64,000 nucleotides of DNA from a virus (IMGVR_UViG_3300021431_004525); one strand, 5' to 3'; counted from the stretch's first letter, positions 11,175-22,553 are shown. Notes: a model not told the origin generated them from the sequence alone. Made by a program: numbers and translations.

Positions 11175-11209
11175 TGTTGGAGACTATACTTTAGAATTTC
11201 ACTTCTACC
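11175..11209 (-). ncRNA. 35-nt hairpin sRNA motif, copy 1
   Basis: GG TAGAA GTGAAA TTCTA AAGTATAGTCTCCAACA; own promoter 11237-11270, no ORF. Confidence 0.75.
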
Positions 11210-11307
11210 TCTGTCAATTTCTTTATCTTTTGACAATGCAAAGGTAGTAAAAAAAACCGAGACTACCAAATAATCTCGGTTAAAGAATGTTAATGTAATT
11301 GTTAAAT

Positions 11308-11652
11308 TCAGTTTTCTATTTTCACCCAATAGGAGAATAGTTCATTTTTTGCCCTATATCTGTCGGGCATATGTCCATATCCGTCTGTATCGAGCCAATA
11401 GGCAAAATCGTCCAATAGTTCATCAAAGGTGTCGATAGTTTCTCTTACACTGCCATAATAGTAAGGCTTACAACCTTTTTTATATTCATGTGCAGTTGTC
11501 AGTGAGGTCACGGGATTTCTGTCAGATGTCATTACATATAGTCTGCCATTGCCTTCCTCAAATATCTCCCTTGCCCTTGTTTTTGAGACACGTAGATATG
11601 TTCCTATATCACTATCTGATATTAATTGAATTTTCTTTTTACTTATTGTCAT
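11308..11652 (-). CDS. hypothetical protein (distantly resembles 16975-17280)
   Basis: start at MTISKK; both have AREIFEEG/AKKAYENG and TFDELLDDFAY/TFENIVNDFRY. Confidence 0.7.
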   Translation of the reverse strand: MTISKKKIQLISDSDIGTYLRVSKTRAREIFEEGNGRLYVMTSDRNPVTSLTTAHEYKKGCKPYYYGSVRETIDTFDELLDDFAYWLDTDGYGHMPDRYRAKNELFSYWVKIEN

Positions 11653-11757
11653 ATAGATATTATTTAATTGTTTTCCCTTTGGTTTTCTTTTCAAGGATAA
11701 GCCACAGAACACCTATCAAGGCGAATACCAATGCTACAATAAGATTACCGGTAGCCA

Positions 11758-12204
11758 TTAGAAGTCCGTTTTATTTTCAAGATATTCTGTTACATAATGT
11801 TCATAGATTGCTTGGTATTCCTCACAACGTGTAACATATTTGAACACAAACGGAAGGAGTTCATCAAGCCATGCTATCATGTTCCTCTGAAGGTCTTTCA
11901 ATCTACCTATCATATATGGGGCTGAATAGTTTTCCCCATAGAGGAAAAGCGGCAATAGGTTTTCAGTTTGTACCTTATTCCAAATCCATGCGATATCGGT
12001 AACACCCAAATCACATTCATTTACCAGATACTGCAAATCCTCTTTGTCAGTAATATCGAAGATATAGTCGGCTCCGTTTCTTTCATCGTTTTGCATACGA
12101 TTATAGGCTGCAAGAACCATCTCAAGAACCTTATCATCAGTTTTGATGTCACGGGTAATTCTTGGTTTGATAATCTCGATAATGTTATTGAAAATCTGTT
12201 CCAT
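11758..12204 (-). CDS. hypothetical protein
   Basis: first gene after promoter 12249. Confidence 0.75.
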   Translation of the reverse strand: MEQIFNNIIEIIKPRITRDIKTDDKVLEMVLAAYNRMQNDERNGADYIFDITDKEDLQYLVNECDLGVTDIAWIWNKVQTENLLPLFLYGENYSAPYMIGRLKDLQRNMIAWLDELLPFVFKYVTRCEEYQAIYEHYVTEYLENKTDF

Positions 12205-12324
12205 ATTTTCTTTTTTTTTATTTAAAATGATTTTGTTTCTAATTGTGATGCAAAGGTAATAATAAATTTTGAATTATCCAAATGAATTACATTATTTAAC
12301 ATTGATTTAACTAAGAATTAACGT

Positions 12325-12504
12325 TTAGTATTCCATTTTAGATAATATGAGATATACTTTCTGTTCACAGCCATGCAGCATATTATTCGTACCATATCCT
12401 TGCCCATAGAGTTTATAGATACGTTCCATTTGCTGTTTAATGGTGTCATAGGACTTAGCCGGTCTTGCGACACTTGCTGATGTGATAATTGCTGTAAGAA
12501 TCAT
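12325..12504 (-). CDS. small hypothetical protein (59 aa)
   Basis: MILTAIITSASVARPAKS...; AGGAGG 8 nt upstream; promoter 12570. Confidence 0.65.
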   Translation of the reverse strand: MILTAIITSASVARPAKSYDTIKQQMERIYKLYGQGYGTNNMLHGCEQKVYLILSKMEY

Positions 12505-12671
12505 ATTTTTGTCCTCCTATTACATTGGTTTTAAAATTATACATATTATATATTAATTGATTTTTCAAGTACAAAGTTAGTGATAATTTTTGAGAGTACC
12601 AAATTTTTTGAGTTAAATCATCGTTAAATCCATGTGAAATTTATATAAAATTAACAATTCCGTACAGGACG

Positions 12672-12706
12672 TGTTGGAGACTATACTCTAAGGTTTTACC
12701 CTTACC
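12672..12706 (-). ncRNA. 35-nt hairpin sRNA motif, copy 2
   Basis: GG TAAGG GTAAAA CCTTA GAGTATAGTCTCCAACA; own promoter 12722-12755. Confidence 0.75.
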
Positions 12707-12805
12707 TATCAATTTTGATAATGCAAAGGTACGAATAATTTCTGAGAAAAACGAATTATTTTAGTTAATAGACATTAACAGATTGTTAAGAAATGTTAAT
12801 AGCCG

Positions 12806-13129
12806 CTATAGTGATATATCTTCTTCATCTGTATCTATTATATAATCTATTTCCGGTTTGATATATCTTATCTCTGTTGCTTTGCCGTACAATCCCACAT
12901 ATTCATTCAAATTCCATATACCATTGTATTTATCCATTCTGAATGAGATATTATGTTTATTGGGTTTGAAGTAACATTTGCAGAATATGCTATTGGTTGC
13001 TTTGAATATTCCGGTTTTATTGATATTTTCATCAATATATGTTTTATCAGCAGGGAATGTATTAACCATTTCCTTGGCCATATTCCAATACTTGATAATC
13101 TCTGAACCTTTAATTGATATGTAATTCAT
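12806..13129 (-). CDS. hypothetical protein
   Basis: ORF in operon. Confidence 0.7.
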   Translation of the reverse strand: MNYISIKGSEIIKYWNMAKEMVNTFPADKTYIDENINKTGIFKATNSIFCKCYFKPNKHNISFRMDKYNGIWNLNEYVGLYGKATEIRYIKPEIDYIIDTDEEDISL

Positions 13130-13130
13130 A

Positions 13131-13679
13131 TTATTTGATTTTTTCTATTGTGAATGTATATGGTGCTACTGCTCCGGAAAGCCATCTTGGGTTATCTATT
13201 TTCCACATTCTGTTTGGTTCTATTACATTCACGGCAAGTTTCTCATTATTGATTTCGTTCATCATATTAATCTCGCTTTGAATAAATTCATCTGTCAATT
13301 CATGTCCGAGAAGGATTTGTTCAGCGAAATGCCTGAAAGCAAGATACCAGTTCATTGATAAATCACCGCCATTAGGAAATACTCCACCATTCATAACAGA
13401 AACTTCGTGTTTTCCAAACTTATCTATGAATTTATATTTACCGCCAACAATGAAATATTTGTCGATTTTCTTGTGTGAAGGCTTATCCCAAGTTTCAATC
13501 GTATGTCGAATAATGTCAACCGACCTATACTGCCCGCCAACAAGATATGAATCTGCTGCTTTAGTAATAGTTACTTTTACCTTTGGGTATTGATACATTT
13601 TATTCTCATAGGCGATACATTTATCCTCTGTGTCGAATAAACGTCCATTGAAAGCCTTATAAGCGATTACTTGTTCCAT
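13131..13679 (-). CDS. hypothetical protein
   Basis: N-terminal YKAFNGRLFDTEDKCIAYE motif common in phage proteins; promoter 13704. Confidence 0.75.
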   Translation of the reverse strand: MEQVIAYKAFNGRLFDTEDKCIAYENKMYQYPKVKVTITKAADSYLVGGQYRSVDIIRHTIETWDKPSHKKIDKYFIVGGKYKFIDKFGKHEVSVMNGGVFPNGGDLSMNWYLAFRHFAEQILLGHELTDEFIQSEINMMNEINNEKLAVNVIEPNRMWKIDNPRWLSGAVAPYTFTIEKIK

Positions 13680-21044: not shown

Positions 21045-21045
21045 A

Positions 21046-21061
21046 TGTTCCACGTGGAACA
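21046..21061. promoter_or_regulatory. parS-like site 1
   Basis: TGTTCCACGTGGAACA perfect palindrome, matches the bacterial chromosomal parS consensus. Confidence 0.8.
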
Positions 21062-21178
21062 TCAACCAAAGGGGAAGGGTATAACGCTCTTCCCTTAATT
21101 TTTTTAACTATGTTAAAAGTGTTAATTTGCTTGCGTAATTCAATTATTTTTTGTACCTTTGCAGTAGAAAAATTAAAA

Positions 21179-21213
21179 GGTAGGGGTGAAACTCTAAAGT
21201 ATAGTCTCCAATA
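21179..21213 (+). ncRNA. 35-nt hairpin sRNA motif, copy 5
   Basis: GG TAGGG GTGAAA CTCTA AAGTATAGTCTCCAATA; own promoter 21130-21163. Confidence 0.75.
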
Positions 21214-21403
21214 CACCCCATTATATAAATGTGAATTTTATTTAATATTATATGAATGTTATATAATTTTAACATTTTCGTACTATACTATCAGAAATGT
21301 TAATTTAATGTTAAACATACGAATTTCCTTGGTTATTTGAAAAAATTGTATTACCTTTGCATCACAATTAAAAAACAAGTTAAACATTCAAATATTAAAT
21401 AAT

Positions 21404-21661
21404 ATGTTCGGAAAAGGTTCTAAATATAGTTTCAATGGTGACGGCAATTTAGATTGTCAGTTTCTCACCTCCACCTTTGAGGATGGATATCCATATTCTG
21501 TAGGTGTCGTGAATCATACCAAAAAAACGGTTAACCCTGTTCATGGCTACCACTACCCAAACAGATGCGCAAAAGGTCTTATGAACTATGCGCTTAAATT
21601 AGGCTACACCTATGAGGACAGCGAAATGCCAAACAAATTGAATAAAACAATTAAAAACTAA
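21404..21661 (+). CDS. hypothetical protein
   Basis: promoter 21328. Confidence 0.7.
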   Translation: MFGKGSKYSFNGDGNLDCQFLTSTFEDGYPYSVGVVNHTKKTVNPVHGYHYPNRCAKGLMNYALKLGYTYEDSEMPNKLNKTIKN

Positions 21662-21666
21662 ATGAT

Positions 21667-21789
21667 ATGATATACTTTGTAAATGGTAAGGCTAAATTTG
21701 CCTTCGGTGACAAGTCAATGAACGACCATGCAAGACAAGTCATGGATAATCTGAAATGTAAAGAAACCGGAAAAAGATTTGCTGCTTAA
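21667..21789 (+). CDS. small protein (40 aa) ending -RFAA
   Basis: MIYFVNGKAKFAFGDKSMNDHARQVMDNLKCKETGKRFAA. Confidence 0.6.
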   Translation: MIYFVNGKAKFAFGDKSMNDHARQVMDNLKCKETGKRFAA

Positions 21790-21882
21790 CATTCTTTAGC
21801 ACGGAATATTTGCATATATCAGATTTTATGACTATCTTTGCACCATCAAATTTAAGTTTAACGTTTTAATTCATTTAAAGTT

Positions 21883-22407
21883 ATGGCATACGATATTAAC
21901 AACATCATGGCAAAGGAAAACGCAATGCGCGACCCTAAGAACGTAACAGAATGGAAACAGCAACGAGAAATGTTACGCGACTATCTGATACCCATCAGCA
22001 CTGCTGAAAACGTCTCTGTGGGCGAAATATACGGCTTCTGCCCCTATATCATTTATGTAAGGATGGACGCACTGAAGCGAGAGGATTGGCCGAATAACAT
22101 CGCCGAAAATTCCATCTATATCGACTTTAAAATAGACCTTTTTAACAAAAAGGTGGAAGTACATCAAAATGGGCATATTTGGCTTTCACCATACGACAAA
22201 ACAACACCAAAGTACAAGTATCTCGCCATGAAGTCAATGCAAGACGTATTGGTCGACAATGGTGGCAAGAAGTTCCGCAAACAGGGCTATAAGGACATTA
22301 AAGACCTTGCCAACAAAATGCAGAAGTATTACGCACAAGTCATGGAAGCCGTCAATGACTACACCGATGGCTATCCATACAAACAAGGAACAAAACAAGC
22401 GGCATAA
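21883..22407 (+). CDS. early hypothetical protein ending -KQAA
   Basis: promoter 21809. Confidence 0.85.
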   Translation: MAYDINNIMAKENAMRDPKNVTEWKQQREMLRDYLIPISTAENVSVGEIYGFCPYIIYVRMDALKREDWPNNIAENSIYIDFKIDLFNKKVEVHQNGHIWLSPYDKTTPKYKYLAMKSMQDVLVDNGGKKFRKQGYKDIKDLANKMQKYYAQVMEAVNDYTDGYPYKQGTKQAA

Positions 22408-22518
22408 ACAGATTTTTTAAATTAATACTATGTTGTTAGTCCGTTCAGTCCGAGAGGATAGGACGGATTTTATTTTACTTACATTTTGAAACATAAATTA
22501 ACATATTATCAATGGATG

Positions 22519-22553
22519 GGTCGGAGATTATACTCTAAGGTGTCACCCTTACC
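22519..22553 (-). ncRNA. 35-nt hairpin sRNA motif, copy 6 (within a longer non-coding transcript)
   Basis: GG TAAGG GTGACA CCTTA GAGTATAATCTCCGACC; enclosed by ATGGATG/CATCCAT. Confidence 0.7.

Follow-up and report, generated by a model that had tools for sequence, protein, structure and literature searches.

What is made from a 35-nt sequence that recurs six times in one block of a phage genome, each time with a hairpin of its own sequence and, in most cases, directly behind a promoter? The question was raised by the viral contig IMGVR_UViG_3300021431_004525, of which a stretch of 64,000 nt (the window; all coordinates count from its start) was analysed. The window derives from a large, uncultured phage whose hosts are Bacteroidales of the gut or rumen. 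Phages of these bacteria rank among the most numerous viruses in the human gut and the rumen, and to our knowledge their take-over of gene expression is almost unstudied; their hosts have neither Hfq nor ProQ and no Shine-Dalgarno-led initiation. An earlier reading of the window (the sequence-only reading) had described the repeated element, here called the unit, as a covarying hairpin RNA produced as a protein decoy. The analysis showed that the unit is a real phage RNA family, strongly backed by covariation and apparently undescribed.

The hairpin unit and its distribution

The unit consists of GG, a 5-bp stem enclosing the hexaloop RURANA, the return stem and the tail RAGUAUNNUYUCC, 35 nt in total, and the tail is mostly followed by AAYA across the family. 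Scanning the 64 kb with the degenerate pattern GG-N5-GTRAMA-N5-RAGTATRRTYTCC gave exactly six matches (Table 1), the same six with two mismatches permitted, and the number expected from 100 shuffles was 0.00. The covariance model scored these copies at 57–66 bits and the next-highest match in the window at only 11.6 bits, thus the window contains six copies and no decayed extras. The coordinates and strands of all six and the stem sequences quoted in the sequence-only reading proved to be exact, every stem is paired, and the G-U pairs present in two of them are formed on the promoter-sense strand only, as had been claimed. Copy 6 additionally sits inside a local 7-bp stem (ATGGATG/CATCCAT).

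The covariance model recovered further copies both in viral contigs and in metagenomes. A pattern scan of viral contigs detected 29 loci, nearly all on contigs of 40–380 kb, and the model applied to these loci found 89 copies (79 distinct), many of them missed by the pattern and all with five of the five pairs formed. Scanning of metagenomes added at least 120 loci, human gut assemblies included, on contigs of up to 398 kb; among the metagenome matches listed, 147 of 150 distinct copies were fully paired. Altogether, more than 200 distinct copies are known from phage contigs of 40–400 kb of rumen and human gut origin. The compensatory nature of the stem changes, which had been proposed from six sequences, was clear in the pooled set of 210 distinct copies, where 27 stem types occurred, all five pairs covaried and 1015 Watson-Crick pairs and 35 G-U pairs stood against 0 mismatches, counts that are slightly flattered by the omission of three imperfect copies and six chance hits on the basis of pairing or context. 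In the first 43 copies, four of the five pairs covaried and 215 of 215 cells paired (100%), whereas shuffling of the columns gave 72% and sliding of the partner no more than 56%. The G-U pairs (35 copies) were formed only on the promoter-sense strand, their counterpart on the opposite strand being an A-C clash, which means that the folded strand is the strand transcribed from the promoter. The loop varies within its consensus, many copies carrying GTAATA, GTAACA or ATAATA, and the unit contained zero indels in all copies found, so its description as indel-free held far beyond the window.

The view that the unit belongs to no described family was upheld: no Rfam match reached the gathering score in the window, none overlapped a unit at E values up to 5 in the region 10000–23500, and a literature search with the tail sequence returned no paper. 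Outside phages, the pattern scan of prokaryotes, with one genome for each of 185,579 species, gave nine single hits. Six of these were promoter-plus-unit sequences on short contigs of rumen or caecum metagenome-assembled genomes (MAGs), which are probably binned phage DNA, and three were chance matches inside coding sequences with unpaired "stems". Similarly, among 151 Bacteroidales genomes the covariance model matched a single MAG with phage contigs and none of the other 150. The unit is thus phage-specific. GenBank phages gave no match in a DNA search, nor did they with a conserved 179-aa protein encoded next to the units, and searching five phage records for the complement of the tail returned only the units themselves and one stray site.

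The copies are clustered. Twelve lie within 18 kb of a complete 380-kb genome (175–193 kb), nine within 25 kb of a 351-kb genome (302–327 kb), twelve within 18 kb of a third record (7.6–25.8 kb) and six at 74–87 kb of a fourth; generally, a genome contains 6–12 copies confined to one block of 11–25 kb. The block of the window spans 11.4 kb and contains densely spaced host-type promoters together with small orphan genes, which diverge near 18.4–19.0 kb, with the copies sharing the orientation of the local genes. The smallest spacing seen between copies was 167 nt, and the copies concerned each have a promoter of their own. Such pairs, two promoter-unit cassettes arranged head to tail 167 nt apart, were seen in L051 (3752–3973, minus strand), L053, L084 and L121, where the second promoter replaces the usual gene promoter.

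Promoters, downstream register and transcript ends

The primary-sigma promoter of Bacteroidota is characterized by a TAnnTTTG box with TTTG or TTG about 19–20 nt upstream. Copies 1–5 are located downstream of such a promoter (P1) in the same orientation, with distances (in ascending order) of 17, 17, 17, 21 and 29 nt between TTTG and the GG of the unit, and their positions agree with the earlier statement that five copies lie 3′ of their own host-type promoters. A terminator hairpin at 11255–11281, upstream of copy 1, overlaps the −33 region of its promoter. Among the 79 copies found by the model, 78 had an upstream TAnnTTTG promoter at a variable distance, mostly 14–41 nt, and a same-orientation promoter 14–41 nt upstream was found in about 98% of the copies. 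The characterization of the unit as a transcription-oriented, covarying RNA hairpin with host-type promoters of its own and no coding capacity was borne out, while "immediate-early" and "in bulk", the terms that had been attached to its expression, are suggested by the promoter type only.

Copy 6 is separated from its promoter by a tRNA-like T-arm fragment and a 31-nt repeat. The former (GGGGTTCGATTCCCC) is followed by a 3′ acceptor-like tail and lies at 22590–22625 (minus strand) within the copy-6 transcript; neither ARAGORN nor Rfam reported a tRNA at this place, so the element is a tRNA fragment or a tRNA-like domain. The 31-nt repeat adjoins copy 6 on its upstream side (22552–22582) and recurs with 97% identity at 15466–15496, at the start of a long ORF (open reading frame)-free transcript.

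Downstream of the unit, the motif GTTA[AT] begins exactly 20 nt past the final CC (at +21) in 64 of the 79 copies (81%), a set that had been found without reference to this motif, and a second TTAA follows about 11 nt beyond the first GTTAA. The 20 nt in between show an A/T bias and partial conservation. Only A or T occurs in the final ten positions of this spacer, as an A-run or a T-run depending on the lineage, an interchange that fits a DNA-level feature and not an RNA one. GTTAA and TTAAC are the halves of the palindrome GTTAAC; in this phage, they also occur in 2–4 copies phased by 10–11 bp just ahead of the −33 box at almost all strong early promoters, whether a unit is present or not. 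In positions 1–24500 of the window, 22 spacings between consecutive sites were 10 or 11 bp (e.g., 18366–18384, 20378–20404 and 22829–22870). These phased sites, which are a second regularity of this region, probably serve as binding sites for a transcription factor.

As to what follows, the claim that no ORF precedes the next promoter was valid for copies 2, 4 and 5. Behind copy 1 lie about 550 nt of AT-rich sequence (10620–11175, minus strand) with no clear ORF or promoter, a stretch partly conserved (73%) in two related contigs. Copies 3 and 6 have no next promoter and lead into the terminators of convergent plus-strand genes. In the family, the next feature was another full co-oriented promoter (P2) with a gene in 144 of the 200 copies with enough flanking sequence, and the −7 box of this promoter most often ended 104–106 nt past the unit. 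The genes behind it belong to unrelated families, so the unit is not tied to one gene family. About 70% of the copies have no terminator before the next promoter, and a few copies possess a canonical terminator of their own. At least 20 copies (at least 10%), copies 3 and 6 included, meet the end of a convergent ORF and its terminator head-on; these copies have no co-oriented gene behind them, which rules out a role as gene leader for the unit. The convergent copies, too, retain the GTTAA at +21. The GTTAA at 20 nt, the linkage to a next promoter (about 70%) and the convergent copies (at least 10%) are the observations added by the present analysis.

Three further structures were considered around the unit and set aside. 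The hairpin with a conserved loop 3′ of copies 3 and 6 is not a part of the unit and belongs to the terminators of the convergent genes; the two terminators have a common loop (CTATCCnCnCGGACTGA on the minus strand) on covarying stems (CCCCT/AGGGG and TCCGT/ACGGA), and the related phage contig L003 carries the same loop on a CCCA/TGGG stem. A closing stem between the leader and the downstream region was rejected since cognate pairs were no better than non-cognate ones (−3.55 vs. −3.31 kcal/mol, p = 0.08), and a pseudoknot between the loop and the downstream sequence (GUR with YAY at +3 to +5) was dropped because of many A-C clashes seen by eye. Formation of a second RNA hairpin (GTTAA...TTAAC) after the unit showed a weak tendency (mean z −0.96).

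Table 1. Positions of the units and of the promoters, GTTAA motifs and terminators associated with them in the window
Feature	Position	Strand	Details
Unit copy 1	11175–11209	−	stem TAGAA/TTCTA, loop GTGAAA; 66.0 bits (covariance model)
Unit copy 2	12672–12706	−	stem TAAGG/CCTTA, loop GTAAAA; 65.6 bits
Unit copy 3	18876–18910	−	stem CAAGG/CTTTG with G-U pair, loop GTGAAA; 62.2 bits
Unit copy 4	20021–20055	+	stem TAGGA/TCCTA, loop GTGAAA; 61.9 bits
Unit copy 5	21179–21213	+	stem TAGGG/CTCTA with G-U pair, loop GTGAAA; 66.5 bits
Unit copy 6	22519–22553	−	stem TAAGG/CCTTA, loop GTGACA; 57 bits
Promoter P1 of copy 1	11239–11270	−	TTTG, ~19 nt, TAccTTTG
Promoter P1 of copy 2	12724–12755	−	TAnnTTTG promoter
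Promoter P1 of copy 3	18932–18963	−	TAnnTTTG promoter
Promoter P1 of copy 4	19972–20003	+	TAnnTTTG promoter
Promoter P1 of copy 5	21130–21161	+	directly after terminator 21070–21096
Promoter of copy-6 transcript (~340 nt)	22780–22811	−	~225 nt upstream of copy 6
GTTAA, 20 nt past copy 1	11154–11158	−	
GTTAA, 20 nt past copy 2	12651–12655	−	
GTTAA, 20 nt past copy 4	20072–20076	+	
GTTAA, 20 nt past copy 6	22498–22502	−	
Next promoter P2 after copy 2	12572–12603	−	−7 box ends 104 nt past unit; drives 59-aa ORF 12325–12504
Next promoter P2 after copy 4	20124–20155	+	−7 box ends 104 nt past unit; drives 53-aa ORF 20202–20363
Next promoter P2 after copy 5	21328–21359	+	−7 box ends 150 nt past unit; drives 85-aa ORF 21404–21661
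Hairpin then T-run	18809–18837	+	terminator of convergent gene 18469–18756 (+); likely end of copy-3 RNA
Hairpin then T-run	22440–22467	+	terminator of convergent gene 21883–22407 (+); likely end of copy-6 RNA

Possible roles of the unit

The only thing common to all copies is the transcription of the unit from a strong promoter, and the gene behind it is variable or absent. We favour, with a probability of about 0.4, the reading that the copies are self-contained short non-coding RNA genes, the product of which binds a conserved protein. Transcription from the strong Bacteroidota sigma-A promoter would start with an A-rich leader of about 10–35 nt, which would be followed by the invariant module with its single-stranded tail, and the RURANA hexaloop would adopt a U-turn closed by a sheared purine-A pair. 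A stem that is free in sequence, combined with an invariant loop and tail and the lack of indels, points to an RNA that is read by a protein, and the many dispersed copies, with their own promoters and own stem sequences, fit a need for dose. The 6–12 paralogous genes of the early-gene cluster would accordingly supply many copies of a short RNA that acts as RNA by binding one conserved protein and would not serve as a leader for the downstream gene. The exact register that this RNA element keeps with a DNA element suggests that the RNA is recognized, or its 3′-end formed, on the transcribing polymerase, which would be the obvious machine to read RNA and DNA in one register. If the front of the polymerase stood at the GTTAA sites, the 3′-end of the RNA would be close to where the tail ends, with the hairpin about 13 nt behind, an arrangement that would match the geometry of a hairpin-dependent pause.

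Several points weigh against this reading. In about 70% of the copies no terminator precedes the next promoter, and transcription may simply continue into the gene beyond it. The search for a binding partner gave none: the conserved proteins encoded nearby could be assigned to no family, and structural modelling of one of them returned no matching fold. A free, trans-acting RNA would not need a rigidly fixed distance from a DNA motif, which could equally reflect tight packing of the modules or a role in cis. Finally, the only candidate relative in a cultured phage (see below) is a weak match of 23 bits with a degenerate tail. The protein decoy of the sequence-only reading is a special case of the reading as short RNA genes, and protein binding is plausible; the picture of a free decoy leaves the missing terminators and the fixed distances to the DNA motif and to the next promoter without explanation. 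In its fullest form, the proposal of short RNA genes would mean 6–12 mini-genes that produce RNAs of about 50–70 nt, defined by the RNA-plus-DNA register, as an early flood capturing one host or phage protein, and this we regard as possible, though doubtful. If it were true, the battery of mini-genes would be a new RNA-based device of take-over or counter-defence and would represent a new way to make short RNAs without an intrinsic terminator.

The candidate in culture was met in the nearest cultured relatives of the phage (36% identity of the helicase), the 167–179 kb Bacteroides thetaiotaomicron phages DAC16-23 and SJC03. A weak match of the model (23 bits, E 0.002) fell in the unannotated 275 nt that separate DAC16_138 from DAC16_139 in Bacteroides phage DAC16 (L172 1470–1640, i.e., approximately 65,980–66,150 of MT074137.1). 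Here, a TAnnTTTG box is followed by a 19-nt A-rich leader, GG, the stem TAGAA/TTTTA with the loop GTAAAA, and a degenerate tail, and then by a strong GC-clamped hairpin with a T-run (an intrinsic terminator) and the next promoter. The sister phages are 99.6% identical, thus they offer no covariation to assess. If homologous, the DAC16 element would represent an independent small RNA gene in a system amenable to experiments.

The main rival to the reading as short RNA genes is cis control of read-through, which relies on the same geometry. The unit would be a co-transcriptional element acting on RNA polymerase in the manner of lambda nut, HK022 put/Nun, a pause site or an attenuator, and the hairpin and the tail, about 13 nt apart, would stop, release or modify the polymerase at protein-bound GTTAA sites, thereby setting the read-through from P1 into the next promoter and gene. 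The promoter-proximal position of nearly all copies, the exact 20-bp register to the DNA motif with a spacer fixed in length and free in sequence, the co-oriented promoter and gene behind 144 of 200 copies with the −7 box mostly ending at +104–106, the agreement with local gene orientation and the lack of a terminator behind most copies all favour it. However, there is no co-oriented downstream gene to control in the case of copies 3 and 6 and of about 20 relatives, and every downstream gene has a full promoter of its own, which makes control by read-through look redundant. Moreover, no boxA-like sequence was found (the Bacteroidales 16S leaders read GTTCATTGA or GTTCTTTGA, unlike the tail), nor was an N-, Q- or NusG-like partner. 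Taken together, a cis role is on the unlikely side, in our estimate.

An improbable alternative is that the unit works at the DNA level, as a single-stranded DNA hairpin or box for recombination, as a site of replication priming or as an N4-type hairpin promoter. The copies do lie between small, shuffled, unrelated early genes in modules of fixed lengths, assemblies often break at units, the conserved 13-nt box could seed recombination, and the T4-type PeSL cassettes, composed of an early promoter and a stem-loop, mediate shuffling (PMC2839356). This would leave unexplained the same-orientation promoter 14–41 nt upstream in about 98% of the copies, the conservation of the loop and the sense-only G-U pairs. 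A 5-bp stem is also poor as a terminator or a cruciform, and the stem-loops of PeSL are GC-rich terminators located in or before the promoter, not after it (PMC2839356).

Mimicry of a host RNA against defence systems, as an RNA anti-CRISPR, a CRISPR RNA (crRNA)-like RNA or a type III pseudo-antitoxin, is very improbable, even though phage mimic RNAs of this kind exist (PMC10651486; bioRxiv 10.1101/2024.10.29.618823) and the repeat-like length of 35 nt, the individual promoters, the many copies and the phage setting would suit one. The nine single hits in the 185,579 species genomes of the pattern scan included no CRISPR-like, spaced or tandem array of the unit, the model matched none of the 150 other Bacteroidales genomes, and the different stems within one phage are unlike copies of one repeat. 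A crRNA-like guide for a phage TnpB/Cas12 nuclease was likewise rejected: no Cas12f1-like/TnpB zinc-ribbon domain is encoded by the complete 380-kb genome in which 12 units occur, leaving no obvious guide-using phage effector there, and the 20 nt after the unit are unlike spacers. The crRNA architecture of Cas-lambda also differs from the unit (PMC12141684).

Hexaloops of the type G-U-R-A-N-A recur in ribosomal RNA, for instance in the 690 loop of 16S and the 1095 loop of 23S rRNA. It was considered that the unit might be a decoy of the 690 loop in helix 23 of 16S rRNA, titrating a ribosomal protein or an initiation factor; helix 23 of Bacteroidales, GTAGCG-GTGAAA-TGCTTAGATAT, is similar to copy 4 as regards the flanking TA, its hexaloop and the TAT behind it. 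The alignment takes one deletion and one insertion and has no counterpart of the lower stem, the model missed helix 23 in three 16S loci of the order Bacteroidales (best hit there 7.8 bits), many copies have the other loops listed above, and the phage relatives do not encode bS21. This explanation has hardly any probability left, and the likeness may reflect a shared recurrent loop fold. Lastly, a three-codon mini-ORF (GTG or ATG in the loop, two codons and TAA, TAG or TGA) was rejected as practically incompatible with the codon counts, since the in-frame stop present in all six window copies results from the closing U-A pair followed by a purine, only 77 of the 210 copies combine a start-like codon with an in-frame stop, 103 begin with GTA or ATA, and 46 have AAA, AAG or TGG in place of the stop.

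Neighbouring elements and comparison with known systems

The conserved proteins encoded around the units matched no Pfam or PHROG family. The 179-aa protein (20505–21044, plus strand), which ends in Ala-Ala, has 253 metagenomic relatives, the best 120 of the 253 being 64–97% identical; its model is all-helical (pLDDT 83) and matched no PDB entry at E ≤ 0.001. Two phage tRNA genes are located at 14600–14673 and 16325–16400 (both on the minus strand), one of which, tRNA-Arg(CCU), was called by both ARAGORN and Rfam, and the other by Rfam (44 bits) and not by ARAGORN. A 20-nt repeat, TACTCATTTGAGTACATGGG, occurs three times (16305–16324, 16949–16968 and 17313–17332), the first adjoining the 3′-end of tRNA-Arg. 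Between the promoter at 15546 (minus strand) and the tRNA at 14600–14673 lies an ORF-free, G+C-richer stretch of about 860 nt (14674–15540, minus strand), which shares 78% identity with a rumen metagenome contig (L067) over 1 kb. No Rfam match was found for this stretch and its fold z-score was just −1.0; it may give rise to a long non-coding RNA that is transcribed together with the tRNA.

The unit is a widespread motif, missing from Rfam, in the early-gene cluster of very large phages, and it offers concrete handles: a 35-nt RNA, a defined DNA register and a possible relative in cultured B. thetaiotaomicron phages. The phased GTTAA sites at nearly every early promoter add a DNA motif that points to a transcription factor.

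Of the known systems, the two named in the sequence-only reading as analogies, RNA anti-CRISPRs and pseudo-ToxI, did not gain from the genome searches, which found neither a host array nor a tandem counterpart in the 185,579 species or the 150 other Bacteroidales genomes. With ToxI and the pseudo-ToxI of phage PhiTE the unit has in common its length (about 35–36 nt), and ToxI is a protein-binding small RNA in phage–host conflict; ToxI is tandem and placed beside toxN, while the units are dispersed behind their own promoters and have no tandem relative in the genomes searched. Like the RNA anti-CRISPRs (Racrs) or viral crRNA-like RNAs, the unit is a promoter-driven phage hairpin RNA of about 35 nt without an ORF (PMC10651486), and by analogy with the protein binding considered for those RNAs the same may be thought of the unit. 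In contrast to them, its likeness to host CRISPR repeats was sought and not found, and its stems vary within a genome.

The sibling small RNAs, such as FopS/GibS of Bacteroides and Qrr, are separately transcribed paralogues with a common single-stranded stretch and compensating stems, as the units are; the units differ in that they mostly have no terminator, Rfam match or phage target and that their loop is conserved, too. T4-type PeSL cassettes resemble the unit in combining a strong host-type early promoter with a stem-loop among small, non-essential early genes in a plastic region (PMC2839356). In PeSL, however, a stable GC-rich terminator stem-loop lies in or before the promoter and is followed by a ribosome site and a gene (PMC2839356), whereas the unit has a weak hairpin downstream of the promoter, with conservation of the loop and the tail and no ORF behind it.

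Compared with lambda nut, the loop of the unit has six bases (RURANA) in place of the five of the GNRA-like boxB pentaloop, the linear box comes after the hairpin and differs from boxA, and there are 6–12 copies instead of 2; moreover, the units come after terminators and not before them, many have no downstream gene, and no N-like protein is known for them. The unit shares with lambda nut and HK022 put a 5-bp stem of free sequence, a conserved purine-rich loop and a linear box, which are placed shortly after early promoters, occur several times per genome and, in nut and put and perhaps likewise here, are read on the nascent RNA.

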